A stretch of DNA of 60,371 nt, counting the filler. It is 6 parts of 6 records of this genome, joined end to end, with 100 filler letters (N's around TTAATTAATTAA, not from the genome) between each part and the next. Parts side by side here need not be neighbours in the genome. Positions count along the whole stretch, not along the records: positions 11,530 to 29,890 come from SRR31147125_4982; 5 more parts are not named here. One strand, given 5' to 3'. The notes below the pieces were generated by a model that saw nothing but the letters and a program-made list of their open reading frames with translations, did no database searches and was not told the origin of the DNA. The translations under genes were made by a program, and so were the position numbers. Below are positions 5,985 through 29,224 of this stretch, piece by piece (positions within the stretch are counted from its first letter, which is position 1; each line of letters starts with the position of its first letter).

Positions 5985-6084
5985 NNNNNNNNNNNNNNNN
6001 NNNNNNNNNNNNNNNNNNNNNNNNNNNNTTAATTAATTAANNNNNNNNNNNNNNNNNNNNNNNNNNNNNNNNNNNNNNNNNNNN
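5985..6084. other. Artificial contig linker
   Basis: N run, TTAATTAATTAA (stops in all six frames), N run. Confidence 0.99.
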
Positions 6085-11529: not shown

Positions 11530-14257
11530 CAACCGTTCCTGTATCTGGTTCATCATTTGGATCAGCTGGGTCAGTACCAGCCTTCGTTTCATCTGGGTCG
11601 CTTACACCGTCTTCATCAGAATCTTGAACCCAATAAGCATATGCGGTTACATCACTTGAAAGCGTATACAACGCACCAAGCTCATATCTTGTGCCAGAGA
11701 TAGTCCAACCCTCTAAAACATAACCGCTATACGAGAACGATCTTCCATCGTTTAAAGTAACTACTGCATTTTCTGCATCACTTTGAGATCCAGCACCACT
11801 TCCGCCGTTTGCATCATATGTAATCGTATATGATGGTGGTGTAATGACTGCCCATCCTTTCCAATAACCACTAGATGTTGGGTCATATGTGCTGACTGCA
11901 TCTTTAGAAACTGTAAGGGTACTTCCTTTACTAAGAGGATTGTAATGAGAAAGTGTAGCAGAACTAGGTGGTGTATCATCTAAGTATAGATTAACTTTAT
12001 TACAACCTTGTAAGGAGAGTGATGCTCCAATAGTCTCAAGTAACGGTAATTTTAACTCTTGCAAGTTTGTACAATATCTAAATGCATTATCACCGAACGT
12101 TGTAGCTTTTGGTAATTCTATTTCAGCAGCAAGACACGCTTTAAATGCATTATCACCAAAAGTTGTGGCTTCTGGTAGTATTATAGTTGTAAGGTTCAAT
12201 GCCTCCGAAAATGCATCATCACCAAAAGTTGTGGCTTTAGGAAGCTCTATAGTGGTAAGCGCTTTAGGGCTAGAAAACGAGTAATCTCCAAAAGAAACAG
12301 CTTCTGGCAGAATTACAGTTGTCAGATTTTTACAGGATGACATTGCACTTAGCTGAAAAGTTTTTGCTTTCGGTATTTTTACATAAGTCAATGCATCGAC
12401 ACCAGCCAAGGCAGCCCCCTCGAAATGCAACTCCGGATTGGTTGGCTCTATATATGCTGTCTTCAACGTTTCAATATTATAATAGTAACTGCGCGATGAA
12501 AAAAATTTATCTGGAATATAATTGTCTTCAAATGCAGAAGTTCCCGAAATATTGAGTGTCTCAATATTATCGAGTTTCTCAGACATCCAATCACAATCAT
12601 CATCTGTAATAACACCATCCGTTATTACTAAGTTTTTAACTAAAAGCGGCGAACCACATAATCTACCAAACTCATCTTCAATCGTTCCTGACCATTGAGT
12701 ATGTATGGTTATTGTTTGTGTACTATCATCCCAATCATTAACAGTAGATTTTGTAGTGAAAGACCATGTTGTCTTATCACTAATTCCACCAAAATATAAG
12801 TCATTAGCATTTTTAAATGCAGTGTTATCAATCATTACATATAGTTCTTGTCCTAAAGGTAAATCAGATGATGGGTTAATCGTTACATCACTACCAGAAA
12901 CGCTTACCTTTGTGCTTGTAACATCAATCGTTTCTACAGTAGAATTATCTGATACTTTTTTTAGCGTTATATTACCTGTACCCTTAACAACATTTTGATT
13001 AAACTCAATTTCTAAGTCATCATCTAAATCTATTTCACTAGCATCATCAGCTGGTACAGTAGAATTTATTTCTATAGGTATTTGATTTATTTGTAGCGCA
13101 AAACCATTCCATTTATCATCACTATCAGGAGCACTATCCGCATCATAATTATCTATATCAGTCTGAGTGGGAAGTGTTAGCGTTGATCCTGCAACAGGAA
13201 CACCAGAACCAAAGTTTACATTCGATGGTATTGTGGATCCCAAAGTCAATGAGATAGGATTAACATCACAACCATTAAACAAATTATTGCCAGTAAAGTT
13301 TGTAGCTGACGGTAAATTTACAGTTGTTAATTTTTTACTCCAGTTAAATGCACTAAGCCCAAAGGTAGTAGCTTTTGGCAAATCAACAGTCGTCAAGTTT
13401 TGACAATTACTAAATGCCCCACTTCCAAAAGTAATAGCTTCTGGCAAACTTACACTAGTTAAATCTGTGCAATTGGTAAAAGCACTACTCCCAAATGAAG
13501 TAACTTTTGGCAAATTAATTGTGGTTAGACTTGTGCATGAATCAAATGCATTATCTCCAAATGTAGTCGCTTTCGGTAGCGTAATCGTTTCCAAAGCATA
13601 ACAGTATTGAAACACATAATTCCCAAAAGTTGTAACTTCAGGCATATTAACTGTTGTCAACTTTTCGCATTCATAAAATGCAGTACTATCATCACCATCA
13701 TCTGAAAATGTTGTAACTTTCGGCAAATTAACTTCGGTTAACTCTGTACAAAAACCAAAAGCATAAGGAGCAAAACTAGTAACTTCTGGCAAAGTAATCG
13801 CTGTCAATGCAGTGCAACTCTCAAATGCGTTCATACCAAAAGTTTTAGCATTCGGCAAACTAACTGTGGTTAATGAACTACAAGAAGAAAAACACTCCTC
13901 ACCAAAACTAACGGCAGGGAATGTCACTTCTTCAATAGTTGTATTAGGACATAAAAAAGTATCACCAACTGATGCGCATGTTATTGAGTTTGCAACATTT
14001 AAAATCTCCAAATTAGTGCAGCTATTAATATAATCAATATCGGCCGAGTTAAAAGTACCGGTTGCAGTAACATTTAATTGGGTAATATCCGTTGGATCAA
14101 GAATCCCTTTATCCATAGCTCTACCCAGCAACGTTCCAGACGATATATTACCATCGACAGTCAAAACTCCTCCAGAATAACTGTCAGCAAAAGCAACGGT
14201 TGGAATAAACATACACAATATAAGAGTCAATAAAACTATAAACAAAATTTTTTTCAT
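11530..14257 (-). CDS. Secreted BspA-type (LRR_5) surface protein with Ig-like, InlB-B-like and Ca-binding DxDxDG motifs, 3'-truncated
   Basis: Signal peptide MKKILF...VAFA, two blocks of LPxATTFGxxAF..C..L repeats separated by an SbsA-like Ig domain, YTITYDANGG, DSDEDGVSD..E...GTDP. The ORF track starts at 14272. Confidence 0.88.
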
Positions 14258-14355
14258 TAAGCCATCTCCCAAATGATGAAGTATATGGATTAAACGTCAA
14301 AAATCACAAATTAGACCTCTTACGCATACACCATTTTCATTTGAAAGTTTACCAT

Positions 14356-14382
14356 ATTGTATCTGAACAAAATCTGAACAAA
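14356..14382 (-). promoter_or_regulatory. Activator-dependent promoter: -10 TACAAT with tandem 11-bp direct repeat over the -35 region
   Basis: ATCTGAACAAA twice (14361-14382) abutting minus-strand TACAAT (14356-14361) upstream of the LRR gene. Confidence 0.6.
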
Positions 14383-14424
14383 TTATGTCAAAATTGACTT
14401 TATATTTACAAATTCATCATTATT

Positions 14425-15495
14425 CTATTTTTTATTATTCAAATCTTTTTTCATCTCTTTATATTTCTTTTTAATAAGACTATATTCACTCTTACTTTTA
14501 AGCTCATCATAAAGTTCTAATAGCATGAGATAATAATTTTCGTTATAGCAATCAATTTTTATAAGCTTGTTTAACAACTTAATTGCGCAGCTATCACAGT
14601 CATTATCCTCATAAAAATCTAAAGCCTTATCCGCAAGCGTTAAAAACATACATTCCATCTTTATTTTAAAATCCAATGACCAAGAATATGCATTATATCC
14701 CAAAAAACCACCATGATATTTTTCAGATATCTCTTCAAAAACTTTTATATTACTTGAATCAATCTTGCTATTTTCAATATCTTGCATCAAATCATATAAT
14801 CCAATATAGTCCGCTTCAATAGATCTCCTATCTATCATATAAGTGTTATTAGAAGTTAAGACGCTCAAAGGAGCAATACTTTTCTTCAAATTATATACCG
14901 TTGTATATAACAATGTTTTAGCCTTATCCAACTCTCTATCTGGCCAAAGATTTTCTATTATTGTTTCGGATGAAACAGCCTCTCTTCTAAAGATCAAAAA
15001 TGCAAAAAGTTCTGCTGTCTTTTTGGTTCGCCAACTAACAATACTATTATCTTGATTTCTCACTTCAAGTTTATCCATCATTTTCACATGAAGCTTAACG
15101 TGATTATCTTCTTGTTTAATCTGCTCTCTATTCATCTTTAACAGCATTGTTTTTTCAATAGCCGTTTTGAGCCTATCCAGTTTTACTGGCTTTAATAAAT
15201 AGTCCTGTGCTTGAAGCTCAAAAGCATCAAATGCGTACTTCTTATGTGCAGTTACAAATATTATTTCCGTATCAGAATTGGTAGAATATATCTCCTCAGC
15301 AATTTCCAAACCCGTCTTATAAGGTGTTTCAATATCCAAAAAGGCTATATCTGGTTTGGTTTTTAATACACACTCAACCAAATCACTATACTCCGTAAAT
15401 TGTCCAACTATCTGGACATCTTTGATTTGCGTCAATTGCATTTCCATCATTCTCACTGCATGTCTTTCATCATCAAATACTACAACTCTAATCAT
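14425..15495 (-). CDS. Response regulator, REC + winged HTH + BTAD (SARP-like)
   Basis: FDDE, FLDIETP, FVTAH, DYLLKP, then WRTKKTAELFAFL...LWP...LYTTVYNLKK. Confidence 0.88.
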   Translation of the reverse strand: MIRVVVFDDERHAVRMMEMQLTQIKDVQIVGQFTEYSDLVECVLKTKPDIAFLDIETPYKTGLEIAEEIYSTNSDTEIIFVTAHKKYAFDAFELQAQDYLLKPVKLDRLKTAIEKTMLLKMNREQIKQEDNHVKLHVKMMDKLEVRNQDNSIVSWRTKKTAELFAFLIFRREAVSSETIIENLWPDRELDKAKTLLYTTVYNLKKSIAPLSVLTSNNTYMIDRRSIEADYIGLYDLMQDIENSKIDSSNIKVFEEISEKYHGGFLGYNAYSWSLDFKIKMECMFLTLADKALDFYEDNDCDSCAIKLLNKLIKIDCYNENYYLMLLELYDELKSKSEYSLIKKKYKEMKKDLNNKK

Positions 15496-18400
15496 TATTT
15501 CCGCCTCATATCTTTAACTTCAAAGCTCAAAACCACTTTTGTGCCCTTATTAAATACACTTTCAACTATAAACTCAGCGCCATACATTCTATCCATACAG
15601 CGTCTTACATATAATATACCAAGTCCAGTCCTACCATCGCACTTTTCTCCCGACATTATGCATTGCAAATCCTCTTCTTTAATACCAACGCCATTATCTA
15701 TAATCTCGACAATATACTTGTCATTTTTAAGGTATCCGCATATATTAACATTACCACCCAGCGGCTTTTTGGTCACCCCATGCTGAACAGCATTTTCAAC
15801 GAGAGTTTGTATAACAAAAGGAGGAACTCTAACTCCGCTTTCATCACGTATATCAAAGGAGTATTCCAACTTCTCTTCAAAGCGATTTTTTTCTATCGCA
15901 AGATAAACCTTTACTAATTCCAATTCCTTTTTTAAGAATACTTCCTTTTCTGCATAATCAAAATCAAAGTTATGCCTTAAATAATCAGCAAGATCTATTA
16001 TGTTACTGGATGCAGCTTTACCATCGTCAAAGCACTTTACAGCAATTGAGTTCATTGTGTTAAACAAAAAATGCGGATTCATTCGTGCTTGCAACATTTT
16101 AATTTCATCATCCAATGTTTCACTTGCAATATTTTTTAGTTTAGATAAAGTATTTACTCTAGCAACTAGCTCTTCGTTTTCGAATGGTTTAATCAAAAAA
16201 TCATTGGCTCCAGCTTCAAAACTTTCCTTTAACCCTCTAAGATTAGCTTTTGCTGTCATAATCAATATAGGCATTTGTAATAAGTCATATTTGCTTCTTA
16301 TCATAGCAGTCAAATCTTCACCCGAAATCTTAGGCATCATAAGGTCAACAACAGCAAGCACAACATTCGGGTTTGACAATATCTCCTTATATCCTTGCTC
16401 TTCATCAGTAAACCCTCTAATACTATACCCTTGGCTTTTAATAACGCTACACACCGAATAAACATTTTCGTAATAATCGTCTATGATTACAATAGTATCT
16501 TTATCAGTTCCATCGATACTGATCTGTTTTTTAACAGTCTCTCTAAACAAACTATCTTTACTATTTTTGTTCTTATCTTCATAACTGTCAAAAGTATCAA
16601 TATTTTGTACTTCAGCATCACTTAGCGGCAACACCACAGTAAACTTAGAGCCATTTCCGATAGCACTTTCAACCAAAATTTCACCATCATGGGCATTCAT
16701 TATCTCTTTTGAAACACTAAGTCCTATTCCCATCCCACCATATTTCTTACTGATGGTTTCATCTGCTTGATTAAAGGAATCAAAAATTGCTTCAATGTTT
16801 TTTTCATCTATACCTATACCAGAATCAGCTATTTCTATATATAGTTTCTGGTTTTCATCATATAGTTTAATGCAAATTTTACCGTTTGTTGGTGTAAATT
16901 TAATGGCGTTTCCAAGCAAATTGTATATAACCTGTGTCATACGATATTTGTCGCCATAAACAATATATATATCCTTGCTTAGCTCAAAAGTATGTTGAAT
17001 CGCTTTTTCATCCATCATTATTTTTAGCTCGTTTACTGTTCTCATAACAGTCTGACCTATATCAAAATGACCCATTACCATTCTAATTTTGCCACCTCGC
17101 ATACTACTATAATCTAGCAAATCGTTTATCAAAACATTCAGTCGTCTCGAACTATATGAAACCATTTCCAAGGATTCCTTTTGCTTGTCATCAAAACCCT
17201 GTCCATCAGCAAGCACAGATTCAGTCAAAGCAACCATACTATTCAAAGGTGTCCTAAGCTCATGAGAAGTGTTAGTCAAAAATTGTTCCTTAGTCTCATT
17301 GCTCCTTTTAAGCTCTTTCGTCAAATTCTCAGCACTAATAAACGCCTTTTCATATTGCTTTGTAGCAATTATTGTAAAGCATAAAACAAAAAACATAAGC
17401 CCAATAGGCATCAACAAGCCAAAAGGTGACGGAATCAGTAAATACATATATAACACGTCATAAACTACAAAAGCCATAAGCACTGCTGTGCCAAGCATAA
17501 CCAATAACGAATCAGACTTTTTAGCATAGATAAGCTTTGAAGTTACCCACATACCAAATAAAAACTCAGCTACTACAAGCATATCTTTTATCAAAGATAT
17601 TGTTCCAATAAAAAAATCCTCAAAAAATATTAGTATGACGAATAGAAAAACAATCTTTACCGAAGTTAAATATATGATCGTTTTGTTTATTGACTTTGGA
17701 TAAATAATATTAAGCAGGTATAATAATATACTGCCTCCACATATCGATATAATAAAAGACATCATCAGGTATACTTTGAAAGGCAGGTTCGGCATAATAT
17801 CCCTTATAAGCAGTAAATCCCTTGATAAAATATATGCTATAGTGACTAATGAAATAGCTACAAGATTACCAAATATCCGATTGCCCTTTTTTGCCCTGGT
17901 TCCTATTAATCCAAACAGAAAGAAAAAAACTATAAATACTCCAAAGAGGAAAACACCTTTAGAAAACCTTAATTTCATCAACTGATCGATATTTTTACTG
18001 TGTCCAAGCAATATCCTGCCATTATATCCACCGTTGCTATATTTAAAGCTCGAAACATGCATTGTTATAATCATCTCATGTTCAAGATAATGTTCAATCG
18101 TTTCAGCTCTATACTCAGCAACAATATCCTGCTTACTCTTTGCAGGGTTACCAATTTGGAATACTTCGTCATCATTAATATAAACCGTATATGCGTCGAT
18201 AGGTGCCATTGGAAAAAACAACTTGATATTTCTTGGCGCTCCACTATTTATTATTCTTAACTGGTATGTGCCATATCCCTTTTCTTGCATAACTGTATCT
18301 TCAAACTTTTTCTCTGCCCAGTCTCCCGGCAATGACATAGATCCTTTATCTCCATCATACGTTTCTGTGGCGCATAGGTTCAAAAACACATTAGGATAAA

Positions 18401-18614
18401 ACAGCCACTCTCCACTTAAGCTTACAACCTCATCCATTTCAAGTACGGAATCATCAATTTGGAATATACCATCATTAATTATTGGTTCGTCATTTATTAT
18501 GCTAGTGGTTAAATTTAATATATAAACGATTAAAGCAATAAGTAATATACTCATCAGAAAAATGCTTATAATCGTAAAACTATCCTTGAACGCTCTTTTA
18601 TTCCTTATCACCAC
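15495..18614 (-). CDS. Hybrid sensor kinase: extracellular + multi-TM, HisKA/HATPase, REC, second LytS-type kinase
   Basis: SHELRTPL, NLLGNAIKFT, DSGIGI, DLMMP, LQARMNPHFLFNT, QTLVENAVQHG, DNGVG. Confidence 0.9.
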   Translation of the reverse strand: MVIRNKRAFKDSFTIISIFLMSILLIALIVYILNLTTSIINDEPIINDGIFQIDDSVLEMDEVVSLSGEWLFYPNVFLNLCATETYDGDKGSMSLPGDWAEKKFEDTVMQEKGYGTYQLRIINSGAPRNIKLFFPMAPIDAYTVYINDDEVFQIGNPAKSKQDIVAEYRAETIEHYLEHEMIITMHVSSFKYSNGGYNGRILLGHSKNIDQLMKLRFSKGVFLFGVFIVFFFLFGLIGTRAKKGNRIFGNLVAISLVTIAYILSRDLLLIRDIMPNLPFKVYLMMSFIISICGGSILLYLLNIIYPKSINKTIIYLTSVKIVFLFVILIFFEDFFIGTISLIKDMLVVAEFLFGMWVTSKLIYAKKSDSLLVMLGTAVLMAFVVYDVLYMYLLIPSPFGLLMPIGLMFFVLCFTIIATKQYEKAFISAENLTKELKRSNETKEQFLTNTSHELRTPLNSMVALTESVLADGQGFDDKQKESLEMVSYSSRRLNVLINDLLDYSSMRGGKIRMVMGHFDIGQTVMRTVNELKIMMDEKAIQHTFELSKDIYIVYGDKYRMTQVIYNLLGNAIKFTPTNGKICIKLYDENQKLYIEIADSGIGIDEKNIEAIFDSFNQADETISKKYGGMGIGLSVSKEIMNAHDGEILVESAIGNGSKFTVVLPLSDAEVQNIDTFDSYEDKNKNSKDSLFRETVKKQISIDGTDKDTIVIIDDYYENVYSVCSVIKSQGYSIRGFTDEEQGYKEILSNPNVVLAVVDLMMPKISGEDLTAMIRSKYDLLQMPILIMTAKANLRGLKESFEAGANDFLIKPFENEELVARVNTLSKLKNIASETLDDEIKMLQARMNPHFLFNTMNSIAVKCFDDGKAASSNIIDLADYLRHNFDFDYAEKEVFLKKELELVKVYLAIEKNRFEEKLEYSFDIRDESGVRVPPFVIQTLVENAVQHGVTKKPLGGNVNICGYLKNDKYIVEIIDNGVGIKEEDLQCIMSGEKCDGRTGLGILYVRRCMDRMYGAEFIVESVFNKGTKVVLSFEVKDMRRK

Positions 18615-18887
18615 TAGTTAGTTCTCCTCTACCGTTAAGTCATCTTTAAATTTTATTTGTTTATTCATGAATCATTTGTAAGTCATTTTTTACCTAAAAA
18701 ATTATACCACATTATTCACTTTAAGCGAATTTAAAAATCACTTATATAGTTGAGTAAAAAACACTCTCCTCTAGAGAATTAATTTCGGATATTATTGAGT
18801 ATAAAAATCTATATGAAGTTTCCAAAGAGATAGCTGCATCATAGCAGTATATCGAAAGTAATAAATAGTATCAATTTACAAAATGCT

Positions 18888-18912
18888 TTAGCCATCTGCC
18901 AAGATGGCTTTT
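18888..18912 (+). terminator. Intrinsic terminator
   Basis: AGCCATC-TGCCAA-GATGGCT followed by TTT. Same stem as at 20256. Confidence 0.65.
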
Positions 18913-19104
18913 CTATTTACTCATAATAAGAATATAATTAATCCAATATAAAGTGTTTTGACATTTGTTCGTATTATGATATAACATAAATAGTAATTTC
19001 TTTTATTTTATTAATCTTAATGAATATTTGATTGATATTTTACTGTTGCATATGGATATCCCTGTTGGTATATTTGGGGTAAGTAAAGAAATACGTATAT
19101 TCAT

Positions 19105-19133
19105 TTGACTCTTCACACGAATAGTACTATCAT
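19105..19133 (+). promoter_or_regulatory. Sigma-A-type promoter for the RHH/Bro-N unit
   Basis: TTGACT-N17-TATCAT upstream of RBS GAAAGGGGGG. Confidence 0.65.
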
Positions 19134-19165
19134 ATATATAAAAACATGAAAGGGGGGACATACAT

Positions 19166-19330
19166 ATGTCATTAACATCAGTCAATGTAGATGATGAACT
19201 TGCTCGCAAGCTGAAATCTCATCTAGCATTAAAAGGTATTTCGCTAAAGAAATACATAGCCGATCATATAGAGAATGATTTGGGGAAAGAGTATAAAAAT
19301 AGAACACTATCCACCGACCAAAGTAATTAG
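19166..19330 (+). CDS. Small ribbon-helix-helix (Arc/ParG-like) DNA-binding protein, 54 aa (not in ORF track)
   Basis: MSLTSVNVDDELARKLKSHLALKGISLKKYIADHIENDL...: beta strand, helix, G-I-S turn, helix. Strong RBS. Confidence 0.8.
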   Translation: MSLTSVNVDDELARKLKSHLALKGISLKKYIADHIENDLGKEYKNRTLSTDQSN

Positions 19331-19367
19331 TGTTCTATTAGTCACAAATGCACACAAGTATGTATAC
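19293..19367 (-). ncRNA. Predicted cis-antisense small RNA (~70-75 nt)
   Basis: Minus-strand promoter TTGACT(19397-19402)-N17-TATACT(19374-19379) and a terminator-like 12-bp stem (19298-19339) followed by a T-tract on the minus strand. Confidence 0.55.
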
Positions 19368-19464
19368 AACCAAAGTATATCCTTTTTTGTGTGCTTAGTC
19401 AATACACAGGTAGTATTTATTACTATCAGGAGAGGAACGAATCCTCTCTAGAAAGGATTTTTTT

Positions 19465-20235
19465 ATGCAAAGAGAATTAAAAGTATTTGAGAACAGTCAA
19501 TTAGGTAAAATAAGAACAGTAGATTTGAATGATGAAATATGGTTTGTTACAAAGGATGTCTGTGATGTATTAGGGGTAGGAAATCCGTCGCAGGTTTTAA
19601 CAAGGCTAGATGAAGACGAAAAGAATACCCTCATTTTAAATGAGGATATTGGTAACCCTGAAAAGTCTGTAATTAGCGAAAGCGGATTGTATAATCTAAT
19701 ACTATCTAGTAGAAAGCCACAAGCTAAGACTTTCAAACGCTGGGTAACGCGTGAAGTTCTACCAAGTATCAGGAAAACAGGTAGCTCCAACACAGGTAAG
19801 AATAAATATTTAGATCAATTAGAAGGTGCAAAGTTTATCGCAAACGATTTAAAAATTGACGCCACATCCAAAATAATCATGTACGAAAAAGTATGTGTTG
19901 CTAATGGTGTAGATGTTACTTTTCTTCCAACTTATACCGATGAAACATTAACCCACTCTTTAACAGAACTCATTAAAGAGTTTGGCATAAGCACTTCAAC
20001 TATTAAATTCAACAAGCTCTTAATGGATTGTGGCTTCTTAGAAGAAAAAACAAGACCATCAACCAAAGATTCTAAGATTAAGAAGTATAAATCACTCACC
20101 GATAAAGGATCGAAATATGGCAAAAACCTAATCAATCCAAAGTCGCCAAAGGAAACGCAACCGCATTACTACAAAAATACATTCACAAAGCTTTGTAAAT
20201 TGGTTCTAAATCAAGAAATAATCCCGACCAAATAA
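19465..20235 (+). CDS. Bro-N phage antirepressor-like protein with C-terminal ANT/KilAC-like domain
   Basis: FENSQLGKIRT...WFVTKDVCDVLG...ISESGLYNLILSSRKPQAKTFKRWVTREVLPSIRKTG, then FNKLL...ETQPHYY. Confidence 0.9.
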   Translation: MQRELKVFENSQLGKIRTVDLNDEIWFVTKDVCDVLGVGNPSQVLTRLDEDEKNTLILNEDIGNPEKSVISESGLYNLILSSRKPQAKTFKRWVTREVLPSIRKTGSSNTGKNKYLDQLEGAKFIANDLKIDATSKIIMYEKVCVANGVDVTFLPTYTDETLTHSLTELIKEFGISTSTIKFNKLLMDCGFLEEKTRPSTKDSKIKKYKSLTDKGSKYGKNLINPKSPKETQPHYYKNTFTKLCKLVLNQEIIPTK

Positions 20236-20255
20236 AATATGGTAAAGTGATATTA

Positions 20256-20279
20256 TTAGCCATCAAGCGATGGCTTTTT
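20256..20279 (+). terminator. Intrinsic terminator after Bro-N
   Basis: AGCCATC-AAGC-GATGGCT followed by TTTT. Confidence 0.75.
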
Positions 20280-20299
20280 GATTTTTAAGGCTTATTGAT

Positions 20300-20451
20300 T
20301 TGTCTTCAATTAAAGAAAGTGCTATTATAATTGAAAAAGGCTCTCAAACCCGCTAAAACTTAAGAGAGCCTAGAACAACTAGAAAGATGTTCCGTGTACT
20401 ATGATTATACCATCTTTCTAGTTGCAAAACAACGAAAGGATGATGTTTATG
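20300..20451 (+). promoter_or_regulatory. Second two-hairpin leader with embedded antisense promoter
   Basis: Sense promoter TTGTCT-N17-TATTAT. Hairpin 20338-20371, perfect 14-bp hairpin 20376-20424, minus-strand TTGTTT-N17-TATAAT, RBS GAAAGGA and ATG at 20449. Confidence 0.55.
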
Positions 20452-20454
20452 ACA

Positions 20455-20783
20455 GCATAGCAACAAAACAAACTTTCGTAAAATATAGAAGACTAAATAA
20501 CAAAACTATAAATGATTTAAAAGCACTATATGATTATAGATGCCAAATTTATGGTGAAAGGACTAGAGATGTATGGATTTGATTTAGTTCATGCTCACCA
20601 TATAGAATATTTTTCTGAATATCAAAATAGCAATTCTGAAAATATTATAATTTTATCCCCAAATCATCATTTAAGAATTCACGCAGGTAATGCAGTTTTT
20701 GATAGTGGTAATTTGGAATAGATACGCTTTAATGGGTATAGAGAAAAGATTTATATCAATACCCATTTATATACAGAGTCTAA
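20455..20783 (+). pseudogene. Decayed HNH endonuclease (C-terminal domain fragment)
   Basis: Split over two frames: LKALYDYRCQIYGE / LVHAHHIEYF...N..NIIILSPNHH.RIH. Internal stop at ~20719, zinc cysteines lost. Confidence 0.7.
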
Positions 20784-20797
20784 TTTAGAGGAGCAGT

Positions 20798-21915
20798 ATG
20801 GTGAAACTTGAACTAGAGATGAATGATGCTAAATTTGTATACTCAAAAGACCAATTAGGATATAAAGAAGTGCTTGATGATTTTACACATGCAAAAAGGA
20901 TTATTATTATCACATATAATATATCTGAGAAAAAAATTATTTACTGGATTTAATTAAGAAAATTTCTAGCAAGACTGACATCATCCTAGTAACAAACATC
21001 CCAAATAGATGGGATAATTATTATTCTAAATATCATAAAGATTTAGCAAAAAAGAAAATAAGTATTTATCAATCAAAGCTAAATCCTGATGATATAGACG
21101 TTAAATTTCAAATATTTTTTAACTTTGAAAATCATGGCAAAATAATTATGACTGACAACATTGTATATATAGGTTCAGCCAACTATTCTGATGAAAGTGA
21201 AAATAATATAGAATTTGGCGTTATTAGTAAAGATAAGGTATTTATTAGTAGCTTAAATGAAATAATTGTTCCAGATGTAATTAAGCAATCAGAACCATTT
21301 TTCAATACAGATACATCAAAATTATATATCGATGCACAGTTTTATTCTTCTTCTATATTTACTTTTTATTCCGACCTATACCACCAAGTATATTTATTAA
21401 ATGATCACGCCGGAATAGACTACTACACATATAACGATTGTTATGATTCATTATCAGAACAATCATTACAAAATATTGTTTTTAGTATAACAGATGCCAT
21501 ATCTAACGCATCTTCACTTTATGATATCATATACGATACTCTCACTGTAGATCATGTAATTGGCGAATTAGACGATGAACTTAATAAATTGATGGATAAA
21601 GAACAAGACATTGAAAAGCTTCTAAGCAATAGCTGTATTATTGAATTATGCAATTTTGATATCAATCAGTTTGCATTAGATACTTTGGAAGACAAATATC
21701 ACCATTGTGCTTACGACGAAAGTTTAGATTACTATTTAGATAAATGTAATGATGAAGCAAACGACAAATTGTATGAATTAAGCCACTCAGCTAAAGAATC
21801 ATTGCTTGAATCATTAGATGCTATAAAACAATTTCATAATGATTATAGCACTTTCATAGCCCATTCTAAGAAATATATACGAACCATAAATCCCAAGATT
21901 AATAATACAAAATAA
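20798..21915 (+). CDS. Phospholipase D (HKD) nuclease-like protein, frameshifted at A7 run 20930-20936
   Basis: RBS GAGGAG + ATG at 20798. Adding one A joins the N-terminus to ...NHGKIIMTDNIVYIGSANYS..NIEFG (HxKxxxxD-GSxN). The ORF track shows only 21148-21915. Confidence 0.8.
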
Positions 21916-21949
21916 TGTACTTAAAAAAACACCTTATGATTCACAATTA

Positions 21950-22037
21950 TGTTATCAATCTGTTATCAAAAAGCAGTCTCAGCAACACTGAAGCCCAGTG
22001 TTTAGGCTTTCTAACACCCTGCTATCATTCCCCCGAT
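21950..22037. mobile_element. Putative att-site-like boundary of a genomic island
   Basis: Arm-type direct repeat TGTTATCAA twice (21950, 21961), inverted repeat AACACTG/CAGTGTT, and CTATCATTCCCCCGAT resembling the reverse complement of a guaA 3' end. Confidence 0.45.
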
Positions 22038-22094
22038 AATTTCATATGTAATCTGTGTGTTCTGTAGTGATTCCAGTTGCTTAGTTTGATTTTT

Positions 22095-23574
22095 TCACTC
22101 AGTCATATATCTATTTAGTACACGTTTAAAAGCCGTAGACATAGGGTATTGGTCCATCTCTTTAAAACTAACCCACACATTTTCTGTGTGATACAATACC
22201 ACTTGCTTGTCTGTTTTTAAGAACGTGCAGGTGAATATGCCAGACTTTATGTGTGAAAACATGCTTATATATGTTCTTTACTATCTTCTCTATAGTAAAC
22301 GCCGCAATATCGAAGTGATCTAACAGATATTTCTCTATGTCCTTAGAATCGTCAACCTTTTTTGATATCATATAGGGTAAACCATAAAGTCCTGCTAATA
22401 AACCTTCTTCTTTTGCCTTTGTCAAAATGAATTTATCTTGTACAATAACTAGCAATGCATCAACAGTTTCTACCTTTTTCTTTCTACCTTTAGAAACTAT
22501 AGGTAACTGGTTGGTTAACCCCAAAGTCTTTGCAATACATCCATAGTTCATAGGACAAACATCACAGTTTGGATTTTGAGGCGTGCATATAGTAGCGCCT
22601 AGTTCCATAAGTCCTTGATTGAAATAGCTAATATTAAAATCCTCTAAGCTAGAACTTTCACGGATTATTTCGCAGACTCTTTTTTCAATATATTGACGAT
22701 TACTTGGTTGTTTAATATCATCTCTATGGTGATAGAATCGCGATATAACACGCATAACGTTTCCGTCAACAGCTGGTAACAAGTGACCTGCTGAAATGCT
22801 CAAAATAGCACCCGCAGTGTATCGTCCAATACCAGGCAACTGGATCATAGACTTATAGTCCTCTGGGAAAATCCCTTCATAATTGTCCACCACTGTCTTA
22901 GCACAGCTCATTAATCTTCTAGCTCTACCATAGTATCCTAGACCTTCCCAAGACTTAAATACATCGTCTTCACTAGCTTTTGAAAGTGCATCAATATCTG
23001 GCCATTTTTCAAGAAACGCTTCGTAGTAAGGTATCACCGTATTCACCTGAGTCTGTTGGCACATTATTTCAGATAGCCAAATTTTATATGGATCTTTTGT
23101 TTCTCTCCATGGTAGTTTCCTGTGGTTCTCAGCATACCAACTCACAAGAGCTGATGACATTTCATCATACGGCATCATTAAAAGCTCGTCAAAGTAGTGA
23201 CTTTCAATTAAATACTCCACTTGATACTTTAGTGCAAGTTCCAAGAGCAAAGACTTGACCATCTCAACCTTACATAACCCATCCTCATAACCTTCAATGG
23301 ATTTTAGTACTTTAGCCTTTTCATCTGCCGTTGCGCGCTTCTTTATATATCCCCATGTATGGTAAAATGTATGGATTACAGCCTTTTTTTGGGGTCTCAT
23401 CAATAAATAGTTCTCAATAGTTTCACGAACTATCTTAGGGTTGACTCCCTTACTAAGGCTCTTTGATATACTTTTATAGTACTGATCATCTCGCTCCATT
23501 ACACAATATTTTTGAGCAGCCCAGTACTCCTCTACAGACTTTTGATTTTTATTTTGTGTTTCAATATTTTTCAT
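22095..23574 (-). CDS. mutY: A/G-specific adenine glycosylase MutY with N-terminal DUF1722 (YbgA-like) fusion; frameshift near the 3' end
   Basis: LPWR, SEIMCQQTQV, WEGLGYY, LPGIGRYTA, VDGNVMRV, CxxxxxxCxxCxxxxxC Fe-S loop. Removing one base from the T5 run at 22214-22218 gives the canonical end VWVSFKEMDQYPMSTAFKRVL* at 22095. Confidence 0.9.
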
Positions 23575-23658
23575 AATCCCCCTACCTATATGAGGTCATT
23601 ATAGCATAATTTTTTAGATAAGGTTTAGGATTCAAGGATTGTGTAAAGCAATTGAACA

Positions 23659-23736
23659 GAGCACATCCAAAGATTTCTTGGTATGCGCTCTTGCCTTAGC
23701 CGTGTTTTGTTTTATAGCTACTCCCCACTCACTACT
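23659..23736 (-). promoter_or_regulatory. Degenerate yybP-ykoY (Mn2+) riboswitch-like remnant with overlapping terminator hairpin
   Basis: Minus strand GGGGAGTAGC...AAACAAA..CGG...GGCAAGA followed by the GAGCGCAT...ATGTGCTC stem. Confidence 0.4.
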
Positions 23737-24017
23737 AAAACTCGTTTGTTAAACAGTATCGTTTAGGCGGTTTGACTCTCATTATCCGTATTATATACAT
23801 TACCCATATATTTTGGGCTATCTGATTTTTTATTACCGAATTGTTGCCAGTATTATTTATAATATCGAACAATGTTTAAGCAATGATACGAATCTAATAA
23901 AAATACTCTAACATATAAGCAATATTATAAACAATAAAGGGTGTATAATATCTTTACACACCTCTCCATTTTTGTCAGCTGTTTATCTTTTATACTTTTC
24001 ATCATACATCTCTAAAA

Positions 24018-25304
24018 TTATATCTTTTTTGCTTTGAGCGCCGAATAATATTTATCCAGTACATCATGCACCTTATCCATCATTAAATTCACTGCGGATA
24101 CATCGAGCTCTTTTCGTCTGATTTTTTCATACTGATTCGGCATAAACTGCTTTATCAACGTCAATGGAATCTGCTTTGAATCAAAACGCTTGATCAGTTC
24201 TTTGATTGATGTTTGTATTTCCTCATGATTAAAATAGTACCGCCATCTGTCTGAATAACTGTATTTCCTTTTCAAAACAACTTCTGTCGCATCACCAGTA
24301 TAGTACTTTTCCCAATACTTAGGGTTTTGACACATCACCAAATCCAAATCCTTGATAAAGTCATGTCCTTCGTTACTTGCGTTACAGATATGCTGCAAAG
24401 AGAACAAACCTTCACGCAGTTCAAATGTCAGCTCCGGACCCACTTTCAAGATCGCTATACCGTCTTCGACCATCTCTTTCAGTTTTTCTTGTCGCTGATA
24501 ATCCGTAGAATGCCCTTCAAAGACAATAGTCTCGTGCGCTTCAAGTGCACTTGTCAACGCTTCAGCGTTTTTCCGATCGTACTCATCAACGCTATCATCT
24601 CCAAATTCAACACCCGGCTGAACCACCACTGCGATCACCCGTTCAAAGGCATGATTTAATCCAAAATCGTCAAATGTATCCTTAAACACATTGACCGTCG
24701 TTTCAAAGTCCTGCTTTGATGTTACAACAACGCCTTCGTGATCGCCCTGCACACCGCCCGGTATCGGCACTTCACTACCAATTACATAGACCAAATCACT
24801 CGCTCGATTGAACTCATCTTCAAAAGCAGCTTCCGCCACTTTGCACAGTGTTGCTCCTCTAGCTGCTATGATTTCATCACTGAGTCTTTCTTCTTTGCTG
24901 TCACTAGCCAGCCGCATACTGGTATCGATATGAATCTTTTCAAAACCGGCACGTACAAACAGCTCGATTGCGGTTTCGGCTTCCTTCATCGCTGTCTCTG
25001 CATCCTTGTCTTGCACAAACAGCGGTCCAAGATGATCACCACCTAAGATGAGCTTTTCTGTATCAAAACCTACTCCATCCGCAAGCTTAAAGACAAAATC
25101 TCTAAAATCCTGCGGCTTCATACCGGTATAACCGCCGTACTGATTGACTTGATTTGCCGTTGCTTCAATCAAGATAAAGCAATCATGCTTCTTCCCATAT
25201 TCCAACGCCGCTTTTACAACATACTCGTTTGAACTACACAGGGATAGTATCCCACTTACCTTCCCACATGCAATCGCTCTTAAATAATTCGTTCCTTTAC
25301 TCAT
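24018..25304 (-). CDS. gatZ: GatZ/KbaZ-family tagatose-6-phosphate 4-epimerase
   Basis: IEATANQVNQYGGYTG, LGGDHLGP, KIHIDTSM, YVIGSEVPIPGG, VVQPGVEF, FEGHSTDYQ, LKVGPELTF, SYSDRWRYY. Confidence 0.92.
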   Translation of the reverse strand: MSKGTNYLRAIACGKVSGILSLCSSNEYVVKAALEYGKKHDCFILIEATANQVNQYGGYTGMKPQDFRDFVFKLADGVGFDTEKLILGGDHLGPLFVQDKDAETAMKEAETAIELFVRAGFEKIHIDTSMRLASDSKEERLSDEIIAARGATLCKVAEAAFEDEFNRASDLVYVIGSEVPIPGGVQGDHEGVVVTSKQDFETTVNVFKDTFDDFGLNHAFERVIAVVVQPGVEFGDDSVDEYDRKNAEALTSALEAHETIVFEGHSTDYQRQEKLKEMVEDGIAILKVGPELTFELREGLFSLQHICNASNEGHDFIKDLDLVMCQNPKYWEKYYTGDATEVVLKRKYSYSDRWRYYFNHEEIQTSIKELIKRFDSKQIPLTLIKQFMPNQYEKIRRKELDVSAVNLMMDKVHDVLDKYYSALKAKKI

Positions 25305-26229
25305 TGATTAAACCCCTTACCATTTCAGGACTAATCTCACCCTCCATCGGACCTAACTTCATCACATTCAGTGCCCCTGCGGCTGATGCCATCTTGCCGG
25401 CTTCCATAATGGACTTGCCTTCTAAAAGCCCACATAACAGCGCCGCATCAAAGCAATCACCTGCACCGGTTGGGTCTACTTCTTGTACTTGATACAACGG
25501 GCAGTCCACTTTTTCGTCTCTCGTATAAAGCGTTGTACCCTTACTGCCTTTTTTCAGCGCAACCACTTCCATCTTTTCATATTCAAACAGCTTAGCGATA
25601 CCCGCATCGATATCATCTTCTCCTGTCAGCATCTTAAGCTCATCGATTCCAGGCATCAAGACAGCGCAGTTTTCCAGCACATTACCCAATACTTCCTGTA
25701 CTGTTCTACCGCCAAGCAATTCCGATCGGATATTCGGATCAAACGATATCTTTGCACCGTTTTTAGCAAACTCCATCGCAGCATCGATGATCTTATTCTT
25801 AAATTCATCGCTCGCCATCAGCGAGCAACCCATAATATGAAAATACTTTGGGTCGTCAATATCACCAATATCAAATGGCTTTGGATGCACCGCCGGTGTG
25901 TTGCCGATATGATAAATGAATTTCCGCGATCCGTCTTCAAAGTAAGTGACGAATGCAACCGCGGTTGATTCTTGTTCATCCTCAAAGACGTAATCTACGT
26001 TCACGCCATCTTTTTTTAAGCGGTCTAAGATGTTTTTGCCAAAGTCATCTTTGCCAACACCACCGAATATTCCGCTTAAGTGCCCAAGTCTTGCCACCGT
26101 ATCAATAAAGATCGCTGGTGCACCACTTGGAAACGGTCCTCTAAAATCGCCTTCTTCGAAGAGTTCCGTGCCTACATCCGGTCGCATAACCTCAACGAGC
26201 ATCTCGCCCATTGTCCAAATCTCACACAT
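25297..26229 (-). CDS. PfkB-family sugar kinase (tagatose kinase-like)
   Basis: GPFPSGAPAIFID, SFDPNIR, DPTGAGDCF. Confidence 0.9.
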   Translation of the reverse strand: MCEIWTMGEMLVEVMRPDVGTELFEEGDFRGPFPSGAPAIFIDTVARLGHLSGIFGGVGKDDFGKNILDRLKKDGVNVDYVFEDEQESTAVAFVTYFEDGSRKFIYHIGNTPAVHPKPFDIGDIDDPKYFHIMGCSLMASDEFKNKIIDAAMEFAKNGAKISFDPNIRSELLGGRTVQEVLGNVLENCAVLMPGIDELKMLTGEDDIDAGIAKLFEYEKMEVVALKKGSKGTTLYTRDEKVDCPLYQVQEVDPTGAGDCFDAALLCGLLEGKSIMEAGKMASAAGALNVMKLGPMEGEISPEMVRGLINE

Positions 26230-26239
26230 GTTTTGCTCC

Positions 26240-27106
26240 TTATTTTAAAAACGCGTTCTTCAGAAACTTGAGTGACTCACTAATATTTTTATCCATAGCA
26301 GCTTCATCCGCTCCATTAGAAATATCTCGCCAAACTTTAATGTCTTCGCCAACCTTTCCACCCATTTTTACAAATGGTTCCATAACAACTCCACCAGTAA
26401 AATCGATATCTCTAAGTGCTTGCCCAATTGCATCCCATGGAAGCGAACCAGTCCCTGGCAGATTTCGATTTCCTTCTCCAATATGAACATGACCTAAATA
26501 ATTACCAGTATATCTGATTGCATCAGCAATATTAGCCTCCTCAATATTCATATGGAATGTATCTAGCAATACTTTTGCCCTTGGCATATCAACATCTTTA
26601 CAAAACCTAACAGCTTCCTCAGAAGTATTTAATACATTTGACTCAAATCTATTGACCACTTCTAAACAAAAATCAATACCCAAATCTCCAGCTCTTTTCG
26701 CTAATACTTTGACGCTTTCAACACCTCTTGCCCAAATCTCCGGTTTATCCAAATCATCAAATTCACATGGCCAGTAAGTATTCATAACCCCAACCAATGC
26801 ACGCGAATCAAGTTTATCCATTTGCTTCATTATATTTGTTAAAAACTCAATGCCTGCTTTTCTAATTTCAGGATCTTTAGATGCTACATCCTTATCCTTT
26901 GGCGGACCAATATTAGATGATATTTCAATCTTCAGATCTGCAGCTAAAGATTTAAGGTCAGCAATTTCTTGATCACTCATTTTCAACAAATCACCTGCTC
27001 CTATTTCTAATATATCAAATCCACAGTCCTTAACCTTCTTCGCAAAGTGCATATAGTCACCATGCCACTCACTTGTCCAATATGCAAATAATGTTCCAAA
27101 TTTCAT
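26240..27106 (-). CDS. D-psicose/D-tagatose 3-epimerase family protein
   Basis: GFDILEI, LEVVNRFE, LLDTFHMNIEE, HVHIGEGNR..PG, VMEPF, VWRD (Glu-Asp-His-Glu metal tetrad). Confidence 0.9.
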   Translation of the reverse strand: MKFGTLFAYWTSEWHGDYMHFAKKVKDCGFDILEIGAGDLLKMSDQEIADLKSLAADLKIEISSNIGPPKDKDVASKDPEIRKAGIEFLTNIMKQMDKLDSRALVGVMNTYWPCEFDDLDKPEIWARGVESVKVLAKRAGDLGIDFCLEVVNRFESNVLNTSEEAVRFCKDVDMPRAKVLLDTFHMNIEEANIADAIRYTGNYLGHVHIGEGNRNLPGTGSLPWDAIGQALRDIDFTGGVVMEPFVKMGGKVGEDIKVWRDISNGADEAAMDKNISESLKFLKNAFLK

Positions 27107-27178
27107 TTATGTTCTCCATTTTTTAGTCATTAAGTGTAAACACTTGTTTTAGATTTAATTCATTATTATAAAAAGTTT

Positions 27179-27196
27179 GGGAGGCAAATGCCTCCC
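27179..27196. terminator. Stem-loop after the binding-protein gene
   Basis: GGGAGGCA-AA-TGCCTCCC. Confidence 0.6.
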
Positions 27197-27226
27197 TATC
27201 AAACTTACAGTATCGAATAATTAAAA

Positions 27227-28228
27227 CTATTTTAAATACTCTCCAACTGTATCCAAAGTGATCAACTGGAAAGGTACCATATTTTCTTTTGGTACTTCCT
27301 CGCCTTTAGCCACAGCATATGCAACTTCTACAGTTTTACTTGCTTGACCTGCAGCATCTTGTAAAATAGTTGCTGTCAAACGACCTTCCGAAACTGCTTG
27401 AAGAGCGTCAGGAATAGCATCAACCCCAACGATAATTATTCCTTCTTTACCCATTGCCTCTACAGCTTGTAATGCACCCATAGCCATGTCATCGTTTTCA
27501 CAAAGTATAGCACCGATATCATCGTATTTTCCTAACCAGTCTTCAGTAATAGACATAGCTTTATCACGTTGCCAATCAGCAGAAAGTTCTGCTAATAAAT
27601 TAAAGCTCGAATCACCAAGAATTGTGTTGTCTAGTCCCTCTCTACGGAAAATTTGCGCAGATTGACCCATATTACCTTCTAACAATACAACATTACCAGT
27701 TTCTCCTAATTGTTCCATTACATAGTTACCCATAATTTCACCAGCTTCAACATCTTGAGATCCTACATAAGCAATATAATTCTCATTTGTTGTAAGTGTG
27801 TTTACTTCAACAACAGGAATACCAGCTTCTTCACATAAGTCTAGTGCACGACCAGATCCTTCGGCATCTTGTGCGTTAAGAACTAGAACATCAATACCTT
27901 TTGCAATCAAATCTTCTACTTGTGACAATTGTTTACTTACATCAGCTTGTGCATCAACAAACAAAAGCTCAACATCATCATACTCTGAAGCTTTGACTTT
28001 AATTGCCTCACCCAATGTGTTAGAATAAGTATCAGACATGGTTTTCATGGTGACACCAATGGTAAAAGTATCTGCGCTTTCAGCTTGGTCAGATTGAGAC
28101 GCAGATTCTTTTTCTTCTGGTGTATTGACTTCTTCACTAACTGAATCATTACTTGCGCAAGACACCATCCCTACTGCTAGAAGCAGTACTAATACTACAA
28201 TTACGATTTTTTTCATAGTTTCCTCCAT
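27227..28228 (-). CDS. Monosaccharide ABC substrate-binding lipoprotein (RbsB family)
   Basis: Lipobox MVSC, DAQ.D..KQ..QVEDLI, NDDMAMGA, VGVDA, TILQ. Confidence 0.92.
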   Translation of the reverse strand: MEETMKKIVIVVLVLLLAVGMVSCASNDSVSEEVNTPEEKESASQSDQAESADTFTIGVTMKTMSDTYSNTLGEAIKVKASEYDDVELLFVDAQADVSKQLSQVEDLIAKGIDVLVLNAQDAEGSGRALDLCEEAGIPVVEVNTLTTNENYIAYVGSQDVEAGEIMGNYVMEQLGETGNVVLLEGNMGQSAQIFRREGLDNTILGDSSFNLLAELSADWQRDKAMSITEDWLGKYDDIGAILCENDDMAMGALQAVEAMGKEGIIIVGVDAIPDALQAVSEGRLTATILQDAAGQASKTVEVAYAVAKGEEVPKENMVPFQLITLDTVGEYLK

Positions 28229-28256
28229 TTATTTTTTTTGTGCTTACCACACAAAC

Positions 28257-29210
28257 TTAAATCATACTAGTTTTTTTCGTTTTCAAATCTAAATATACAG
28301 CAGCTAAGATAATAATTCCTTTAACAATCATCTGATAATATGATGAAACATCTAGTAAGTTAAGTCCATTATTAATTACACCAATTATCAGAACACCAAT
28401 TACAGTACCAACAATAGATCCATTACCGCCATCAAGGCTTGTACCTCCAATAACAGTTGCTGCAATCGCATCTAACTCGTATCCATTTCCAATTGCAGGC
28501 TGTCCAGAGTTAATTCTTGATGCTAAAACTACTCCTGCAAGACCCGTTAAAACACCACTAATAACATATACAAAAACCTTAACACTAGAAACACGTACAC
28601 CAGATGCCTTTGCTGCTTCCGCGTTACCACCTACCGCATAAACATATCTTCCAAATCGAGTTCCATTAAGCAGTATCGCTGCAAGTATAATCACAACAAC
28701 AAATATCACAATCGGAACTGGAAATGGACCAATATATTTCTGTCCAAAGAAAGTAAAAGATTCAGAGTCTAAAACATAAGGTTTTCCGTTTGAATAAACA
28801 TATGCAAATCCTCTTCCAATGGTCATTGTAGATAATGTTACAACAAATGGGGGTAGTCCTCCCCTTGCAACTAAAACCCCGTTTGCCAAACCAAATATTC
28901 CACAAACTAGCACTGCTGCTAATAGCGCCAACCAGCCATATTCTGGATTCACCAAAACTATACTTCCAGATATTACTCCAGATACAGCGACTAGTGATCC
29001 AACTGAAAGATCAATACCACCTGTTAGTATTACAAATGTCATGCCAATTGCAATTATTCCATTAATCGAAATCTGTCTTATAACGTTTACGGCATTATGC
29101 ATAGTTCTGAAAGTTTCTGAAATGCTCGCAAGCACAATACATATTAAAACAAACCCTATTGCAATTCCATACTTTCTAATAATGCTTGAAAAATCTTTAC
29201 TTTTAATCAT
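28257..29210 (-). CDS. Monosaccharide ABC permease (RbsC family)
   Basis: GGIDLSVG, PPFVVTL, TRFGRYVYAVGGN, GYELDAIAATVIGG. Confidence 0.94.
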   Translation of the reverse strand: MIKSKDFSSIIRKYGIAIGFVLICIVLASISETFRTMHNAVNVIRQISINGIIAIGMTFVILTGGIDLSVGSLVAVSGVISGSIVLVNPEYGWLALLAAVLVCGIFGLANGVLVARGGLPPFVVTLSTMTIGRGFAYVYSNGKPYVLDSESFTFFGQKYIGPFPVPIVIFVVVIILAAILLNGTRFGRYVYAVGGNAEAAKASGVRVSSVKVFVYVISGVLTGLAGVVLASRINSGQPAIGNGYELDAIAATVIGGTSLDGGNGSIVGTVIGVLIIGVINNGLNLLDVSSYYQMIVKGIIILAAVYLDLKTKKTSMI

Positions 29211-29224
29211 TTATACTCTCCTAA

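Follow-up and report, generated by a model that had tools for sequence, protein, structure and literature searches.

A probable two-layer switch silencing a phage antirepressor-type gene, on the plan of copy-number control in Gram-positive plasmids

Introduction

What kind of switch stands between a small ribbon-helix-helix (RHH) gene and a phage antirepressor-type gene in the DNA of a likely clostridial Firmicute? RNA control of antirepressors is textbook knowledge for the enterobacterial phages P22, P1 and P4, and in P22 the sar RNA acts directly on the ribosome site of ant. The original prediction for the locus, made from the sequence letters, likened it to the immI region of P22 and proposed that an antisense RNA opens a hairpin in the leader of the antirepressor gene and thereby frees a strand that sequesters the Shine-Dalgarno sequence (SD). 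Lysogeny control in C. difficile phages is called poorly understood in the available text of PMC11172241, and for Firmicute phages the module supplies a specific mechanism of such control that experiments can test. Each of its component mechanisms is already known.

Genomic setting

The window, by which we mean the whole stretch of DNA analysed (60,371 nucleotides, filler included), has paired N linkers at 5985, 11430, 29891, 47295 and 53172. The joined contigs seem to come from different organisms, and the pieces at both ends of the window are not clostridial-looking. The module (19105..20279) sits within the 18.4-kb piece 11530-29890. Because the MutY protein encoded on that piece shares 76% identity with a Clostridia MAG protein, the host of the module is most likely a clostridial Firmicute. 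Eight proteins of the window have no exact-sequence match in the protein collection searched.

Between a sensor-kinase gene and mutY lies a stretch of about 3 kb, 28-33% GC, that holds the RHH and Bro-N genes together with HNH and PLD-like genes, both of them frameshifted. Neither an integrase-sized ORF nor a tRNA was found in it, and no direct repeats of 11 bp or more flank it. The stretch looks like a decaying island, and the window's copy of the module may be a relic in a small island of this kind that lacks an integrase. The PLD-like gene (20798-21915, plus strand) has weak matches to DISARM DrmC and to PLDc, and its frameshift, located in an A-run, is either decay or a sequencing error. 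No SOS box with at most one mismatch to the consensus lies upstream of the module, and the sole match of that quality in 18600-22200 is at position 21292. A further promoter-like site (18958-18987, plus strand) lies 150 nt upstream of the RHH promoter. It directly follows a terminator (18890-18909) similar to that at the end of the operon (20258-20275).

The RHH gene and its promoter

The module opens with a sigma-70-type promoter (TTGACT-17-TATCAT, 10/12) at 19105..19133 on the plus strand, the putative promoter of an RHH-leader-antirepressor operon. Both this promoter and the 54-aa ORF that follows it at 19166..19330 (plus strand) are present as originally predicted. Promoter-like sites in 2 kb number 13, against 9.9 +/- 3.4 in shuffled sequences, and neither the sense promoter nor the antisense promoter described below is by itself above chance.

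Profile matches, a structure model and weak fold matches place the 54-aa product in the RHH fold class, as a putative repressor. A profile of six sequences matches ParG (E 1.1e-7), ParD (2e-4), NikR (0.017) and Arc (0.14). The model shows an extended N-terminus followed by two helices, and the weak fold matches are mostly RHH proteins, none of them at E ≤0.001. The ORF has no close homologue, the word-index search returning none, and a HMMER search with the RHH protein gave a single match, to a 190-aa protein. Among 18,462 ORFs of 363 loci, which had been chosen by Ant domain or RNA loop and not by RHH, the RHH protein is matched best by small ORFs that immediately precede antirepressor genes (L062/L065, E 8.8e-5; L184, L289, L146, L262, L045 and L048, weaker), and the third-ranked match (L171) is an unrelated ORF. 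Small RHH genes can be skipped by gene callers.

A 10-bp palindrome (19121-19130) overlaps the -10 element of the sense promoter and is a candidate RHH operator. Among 14 related small-regulator (RHH-type) genes, 11 have a promoter of at least 10/12, five of them with inverted repeats of 9-18 bp across it. These repeats are consistent with RHH autorepression in the relatives; the window has the 10-bp palindrome only. The terminator scan found no sense-strand terminator between the RHH and Bro-N genes, and the two are probably co-transcribed.

The last ~14 codons of the RHH frame are read-through into the first hairpin of the leader, which lies inside the 3' end of the reading frame, a point that the original prediction had missed. 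Read-through of the upstream gene translates the loop of this hairpin as TDQS or a close variant, both in the window (19311-19322) and at four other loci (L245, L259, L285 and L287). Such C-terminal tails mark an RNA motif, not a protein motif. A 58-aa ORF over the leader (19275-19451) has no credible family and a 68-aa minus-strand ORF upstream has no Pfam match. The upstream ORFs are all short, and no gene for a Mnt-like divergent repressor was found.

The antirepressor-type protein

The second gene (19465..20235, plus strand) encodes a 256-aa antirepressor-type protein with a Bro-N domain (residues 15-100, E 1.9e-24) and a C-terminal domain that has no Pfam family. An intrinsic terminator identified in the terminator scan (~20258..20280, plus strand) closes the operon. 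Residues 1-239 match phrog_130, 'anti-repressor Ant', at E 3e-49. In 50 aligned proteins the C-terminal domain is joined to six different N-terminal antirepressor domains, the partners beyond Bro-N being pRha, AntA, KilA-N, ORF6N and P22_AR_N. The protein thus has the make-up of a Bro-N-type antirepressor, a Bro-N domain with a swappable C-terminal domain, and its presumed antirepressor activity is an annotation-level assignment. Fold searches gave no match for the protein at E ≤0.001, and for the C-terminal domain weak matches only, to viral antirepressors (E 0.05). Pfam detects no ANT/KilAC domain (PF03374) in the C-terminal domain of the window protein and no ANT match in the 50 members. 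Since Pfam does not class this domain as KilAC, the ability of AriS to block SOS, as given in PMC9043618, is not transferable to it.

Two hairpins and a predicted antisense RNA

Two hairpins, an antisense promoter and a strand complementary to the Bro-N ribosome-binding site had been proposed for the leader, and all are found there. Hairpin 1 has 12 perfect pairs (19298-19339). Together with its A-tract (19295..19339) it is the predicted terminator and recognition loop of an antisense RNA and, on the mRNA, the target loop (loop core GACCAAAGT). The 18.4-kb piece has just one other perfect inverted repeat of 12 bp or more (loop ≤25), a hairpin of a second cassette. Hairpin 2 is at 19350..19394 (plus strand); on folding, its 5' arm, which would lie under the antisense RNA, locks the 3' arm that bears the anti-SD. 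This anti-SD strand (19379..19387, plus strand) pairs with 19450-19458 in the predicted structures once hairpin 2 opens.

The antisense promoter (TTGACT-17-TATACT, 10/12) was found by motif scan at 19374..19402 on the minus strand, and is enriched at the level of the family. The predicted RNA (19292..19367, minus strand) has a length of ~75 nt with both ends putative, two stem-loops, and a YUNR motif, UUGG, in the terminator loop. Its start is predicted 97 nt upstream of the AUG, and the RNA does not overlap the SD, ending 86 nt upstream of it (19453). The antisense strand folds with a z-score of -5.5 and the two hairpins (19290-19400) with one of -5.7. None of 200 shuffles is as stable, and the structure is therefore above chance.

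Downstream of hairpin 2, two local hairpins (19409-19427 and 19429-19449, together 19409..19449, plus strand) bring the anti-SD near the SD in the folded leader. They are followed at 19453..19467 (plus strand) by the SD (AAGGA), a U7 tract and the start codon, an ending like that of the pT181 repC leader; that U7 and then AUG come directly after the SD had escaped the original prediction. Two mutually exclusive stems had been proposed near the ribosome-binding site. The hairpin 19429-19449 forms with probability 1.0, but the alternative stem 19440-19459, which it excludes, has a probability of 0.0 at equilibrium, and both values are the same with or without the antisense RNA. A blastn search of the leader against phages and plasmids gave nothing useful. 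The 9-mer ACCAAAGTA is present in the loops of both hairpins, at 19317-19325 in hairpin 1 and at 19369-19377 in hairpin 2. The repeat is a second possible contact for the antisense loop on the switch hairpin, just beyond the RNA's own span.

Folding of the switch

Folding the leader with and without the antisense RNA reproduces the proposed switch, and the mechanics of hairpin 2 hold in silico at this locus. The bound state was modelled by blocking the leader up to the predicted antisense start (19367); the SD is unpaired at 0.85 in the free leader and at 0.01 in the bound one, a change matched by 2 of 200 spacer shuffles. With the block extended to 19342, 19350 and 19355, the anti-SD:SD helix forms at 0.06, 0.71 and 0.99, respectively, which identifies the 5' arm of hairpin 2 as the trigger.

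We consider it probable that the module keeps a phage antirepressor-type gene off by two layers of control, in the manner of the copy-number systems of Gram-positive plasmids. A single promoter would transcribe rhh, the leader and ant, and the RHH dimer would repress it. A convergent promoter in hairpin 2 would yield the ~75-nt antisense RNA ending at hairpin 1, an RNA of this kind having been shown for a probable relative. The U-turn loop of the antisense RNA would recognise hairpin 1 of the mRNA, and the duplex would then extend over the 5' arm of hairpin 2. The freed pyrimidine strand would pair, as it does in silico, with the SD ~70 nt downstream, and the ribosome site itself would never be contacted by the antisense RNA. 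We infer that the output is a translation block, as in pSK41, and not chiefly termination; pT181-like termination may add to the block because U7 follows the new anti-SD:SD helix. When the sense promoter fires strongly, upon a new infection or loss of RHH, the mRNA would outrun the antisense RNA, hairpin 2 would be closed and Ant would be made.

The same antisense RNA could instead act mainly through transcription attenuation of the pT181/pIP501 type, which we regard as unlikely. The terminator would be either the anti-SD:SD helix followed by U6 or, with the freed strand capturing GGAGAGGA, the stem 19440-19459 followed by U5. The U7 directly after the SD agrees with this reading, as does the distance from loop to AUG, which is 151 nt here and 161 nt in pT181 (NC_001393). 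There is also a co-transcriptional route to the stem 19440-19459: in nascent transcripts that end at 19436-19445, the freed strand is paired with GGAGAGGA if the antisense RNA is bound. However, this local stem, at 0.0 at equilibrium, costs 7.5 kcal/mol if forced, the helix that is induced before the start codon is long-range, and a run of five U precedes the start codon in only 4 of 31 relatives among the matches listed.

A leader family in Firmicute phages

The leader belongs to a widespread family in Firmicute phages that Rfam does not catalogue at its cut-offs. A first search pattern that included promoter letters was dropped; it was circular and noisy, with the full loop start in 30 of 80 loci, and the family statistics therefore rest on a promoter-blind scan of viral contigs for an A-tract and an 11-nt loop. 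This pattern has at least 120 matches, of which 80 were taken, leaving 63 distinct loci after copies more than 90% alike were removed. Among these matches listed, the stem of hairpin 1 (score ≥7) is present in 45 of the 63 loci, compared with 10.5% of 1890 positions picked at random. An antisense promoter of at least 10/12 accompanies the stem in 29 of the 45 loci (sense strand, 1; expected, 1.6) and one of at least 9/12 in 37 (sense strand, 6; expected, 8.2). The 18 stemless loci listed have 1 and 6 antisense promoters at these thresholds.

The scan was replicated on 201 genomes of one clostridial order. The loop pattern occurs in 22 of them and a reversed control in 19 by our own count, and the bare pattern is therefore not diagnostic. 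Thirty loci, less 12 repeats, gave 18 distinct places. Ten have the stem, and of these five have an antisense promoter of at least 10/12 and eight one of at least 9/12; no sense promoters were counted, and 0.3 and 1.7 were expected.

Covariation of the hairpins in homologous loci, proposed earlier as a check, is seen when arms are swapped between members but not column by column. RNAalifold on a MAFFT alignment gave no consensus pairs because the stem register shifts, and column-wise covariation is thus not demonstrated. Since RNAalifold was pairless and our model R1 is sequence-only, arm swaps were used instead, on 39 members from the matches listed (four near-copies and two loci without a downstream gene having been dropped) plus the window. 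In this listed set, the own partner is best for hairpin 1 in 28 of 40 (-13.0 versus -4.0 kcal/mol) and for hairpin 2 in 12 of 26. The anti-SD pairs with the SD at -9.8 for the own partner, -6.5 when swapped and -5.4 when shuffled; the own partner is best in 4 of 25 and among the top three in 15 of 25, and 12 of 24 SD regions from other members pair with the window's anti-SD at least as strongly as its own does. R1 matches the window at E 1e-9, partly circularly because its members were chosen by a motif derived from the window.

Thirty-one members among the matches listed have a promoter, SD and start codon within reach. Over these members, which are not independent of one another, the SD is unpaired at 0.40 when free, 0.22 when bound and 0.49 with a shuffled spacer. 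Eighteen reach p ≤0.1, nine switch by more than 0.3 and none reverses. The hairpin-2 switch thus holds on average over the relatives and is not predicted in every one. Predicted RNAs of the listed members are 54-99 nt long and start 33-93 nt upstream of the AUG. All of eight hand-picked relatives with the same Ant domain (six from the eight leader-bearing loci of the Ant homologues, two from another set) have the antisense promoter; two switch clearly, four are closed in both states, one stays open and one reverses.

These data also bear on whether the antisense unit acts mainly by convergent transcription or because RNase III degrades the duplex; pairing of the anti-SD would then be a constitutive damper or a by-product of the overlap between hairpin 2 and promoter sequence. 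We find this quite improbable. In its favour, the SD is paired in both states in 12 of the 31 members listed and in four of the eight hand-picked relatives, and the antisense -35 element often overlaps the anti-SD, so that promoter conservation could create part of the complementarity. Yet the two arms of hairpin 2 co-vary, the 5' arm lies just within the span of the predicted RNA, and the recognition loop is kept while the stems change, which transcription interference does not need.

The U-turn word is on the sense strand in the leaders of L429 and L062, which are loop variants, and in bIL310 (L365, 2530-2560) the flanks are those of L287 but the loop that they enclose is a different one. 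Loop variants are possible specificity groups.

Gene order in relatives

The RNA cassette is not specific to antirepressors. Among the matches listed, 40 downstream ORFs comprise 11 of antirepressor type (Bro-N, AntA, ORF6N, pRha), seven integrases, two YqaJ recombinases, one Gam, one DUF1655 and 18 without a family. Upstream of the 11 antirepressor genes there are three weak RHH-type Pfam matches, three genes that are RHH-like in alignment and two HTH genes, with no gene called at the other three loci. The order RHH-leader-antirepressor recurs in other phages; in C. difficile phage CDKM15, CopG and then Bro-N are annotated around the leader, and CDMH1 and phiCDKH02 match. Leaders were recognised by eye at 8 of 123 loci of Ant-domain homologues. 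Most of these homologues have no leader, and the cassette is therefore portable; it carries several loop sequences, two of them in the window itself.

In C. difficile-type phages (L364 2247-4020, L281, L306 and L201) the RHH-leader-Bro-N module lies beside a CRISPR array, in the tail region and moron-like. At L048 (3469-3615) and L094 (3336-3482), RHH/Arc-like genes overlap the antirepressor start with no RNA leader between. The start-site table of C. difficile 630, a strain that may or may not carry the leader, has no start for it.

Expressed relatives in Lactococcus and Streptococcus

According to the available parts of PMC4829306, as-ps118 of L. lactis MG1363 is an RNA of ~70 nt, detected by Northern blot in a defective prophage whose flanking genes are silent. 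According to the supplement, it starts 36 nt before ps119, which encodes 64 aa, and at a distance of 80 nt from the stop codon of an HTH gene for a 61-aa protein. The lactococcal locus L287, whose downstream gene also encodes 64 aa, has a predicted start 35 nt upstream of that gene, and by eye the as-ps118 probe is the 3' arm of L287 with a loop two bases shorter. Flanked by a small regulator gene on one side and a 64-aa gene on the other, and having this arm and a variant loop, as-ps118 is a probable relative of the leader family, with L287 as its presumed ortholog. The predicted switch of L287 itself is weak (0.39 to 0.23, p 0.40).

In S. pyogenes, antisense sRNAs occur upstream of prophage integrase genes (available text of PMC6431027 and PMC4829319). 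Like as-ps118, these are antisense RNAs (70-89 nt in all) with a promoter adjoining the ribosome-binding site of a prophage gene; their likeness to the leader family is one of layout, and an Rfam match between them is at chance level. The S. pyogenes and L. lactis RNAs are described as expressed and a silencing role is suggested, and the available portions of these papers give no structural mechanism and no link to ctRNAs or antirepressors.

A reading with no antisense RNA is very improbable. The leader would then be a structure that acts in cis, for example one that a phage protein or the ribosomes finishing the RHH frame open or close, or the promoter motifs would have arisen by chance in AT-rich sequence. 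It is true that promoter-like sites in the 2 kb do not exceed shuffles and that the RHH frame runs into hairpin 1. However, the promoter enrichment in the relatives listed is strand-specific, anti-SD pairing is only 0.06 when the block ends at 19342, roughly as far as a terminating ribosome would reach, and the probable relative as-ps118 is expressed (PMC4829306).

Comparison with known systems

The module works like the pSK41, pT181, pMV158 and P22 systems and by membership tests is a member of none of them. Its RNA part resembles plasmid ctRNAs better than it does P22 sar. By mechanism the nearest is RNAI of pSK41, one of the staphylococcal RepA_N plasmids, which according to the available text of PMC5703833 binds ~100 nt upstream and induces SD sequestration, as is seen here in silico. 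This likeness is one of mechanism; pSK41 RNAI controls a plasmid replication initiator, and that text describes no RHH gene.

The pT181 repC leader (NC_001393) shares the A-tract, a hairpin with an identical 9-nt loop core and the SD-U-tract-AUG ending. By our own reading its sequestering strand is the 5' arm of the first hairpin, whereas the locking strand here is the 5' arm of hairpin 2. Its main output is termination, and the gene downstream is a Rep gene (Rep_trans) where the module has Bro-N/Ant (PMC5703833, available text). An Rfam search, called for by the original prediction, assigned none of 20 loci to a family at the gathering cut-off. The predicted antisense strand matches ctRNA_pT181 (RF00242) at 22.1 bits (E 9.5; 19378-19287, minus strand) and three of 16 relatives do so at 38-42 bits (42.1, 41.2 and 38.0), none of these sub-threshold matches reaching the cut-off of 56 bits.

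By gene order the nearest system is copG-rnaII-repB of pMV158/pLS1, which has an RHH repressor gene upstream, a counter-transcript between the genes and, as is probable here, the RHH gene and the target in one operon. In the available text of PMC5703833 and PMC4485353, RNAII (48 nt) covers the translation initiation region and has no U-turn loop, whereas the module's predicted RNA bears a YUNR loop and would act from afar.

P22 immI (mnt, arc, sar, ant; PMC2629481, as far as available) shares an RHH repressor, an antisense RNA and an antirepressor-type gene, and the analogy holds for their order and logic. The RHH protein upstream of ant corresponds to Arc by fold, with Arc itself at E 0.14. 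The analogy fails for the RNA, which is ctRNA-like, does not overlap the SD and has no Rfam match to sar at E ≤10, and for the absence of a Mnt-like gene; in addition, the module's Ant has a Bro-N domain and its host is most likely a Clostridium-class Firmicute.

No paper describing the leader family or its mechanism was found in a search of mainly open-access papers, large motif catalogues aside; the available text of PMC3871023, PMC8237595 and PMC11172241 does not describe them.

Possible role in immunity

The comparison ties expressed prophage antisense RNAs of Streptococcus and Lactococcus to plasmid copy-control RNAs. A broader reading, which we hold to be rather unlikely, is that temperate phages of Firmicutes and plasmids of the pT181 family share a portable ctRNA switch placed before lysogen-silent genes, such as those for antirepressors, integrases or recombinases. 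Because the RNA is diffusible, it might then add an RNA layer to superinfection immunity, like plasmid incompatibility. Since the stems diverge but the recognition loop does not, a resident element might silence unrelated phages through contact between loops. If so, even a decayed island such as this one could silence the antirepressor or integrase gene of incoming phages, and loop variants would define immunity groups.

A second cassette

A second cassette (20333..20451), alike in design but with a loop of its own, precedes the frameshifted HNH gene (region to 20721). Located 1 kb downstream of hairpin 1, it had been missed by the original prediction. Folding gives hairpins at 20338-20371 and 20376-20424, the latter being the second perfect inverted repeat of the 18.4-kb piece, with a z-score of -6.3. 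Its SD goes from 0.93 to 0.20 unpaired (shuffle p 0.11). The RNAs of the window's two cassettes pair poorly with each other (-31 and -28 versus -129 and -121 kcal/mol). The predicted antisense promoter of the second cassette (TTGTTT-17-TG-TATAAT, a motif match with the -10 at 20409-20404, minus strand) has the same form as the promoters of the S. pyogenes integrase antisense RNAs.
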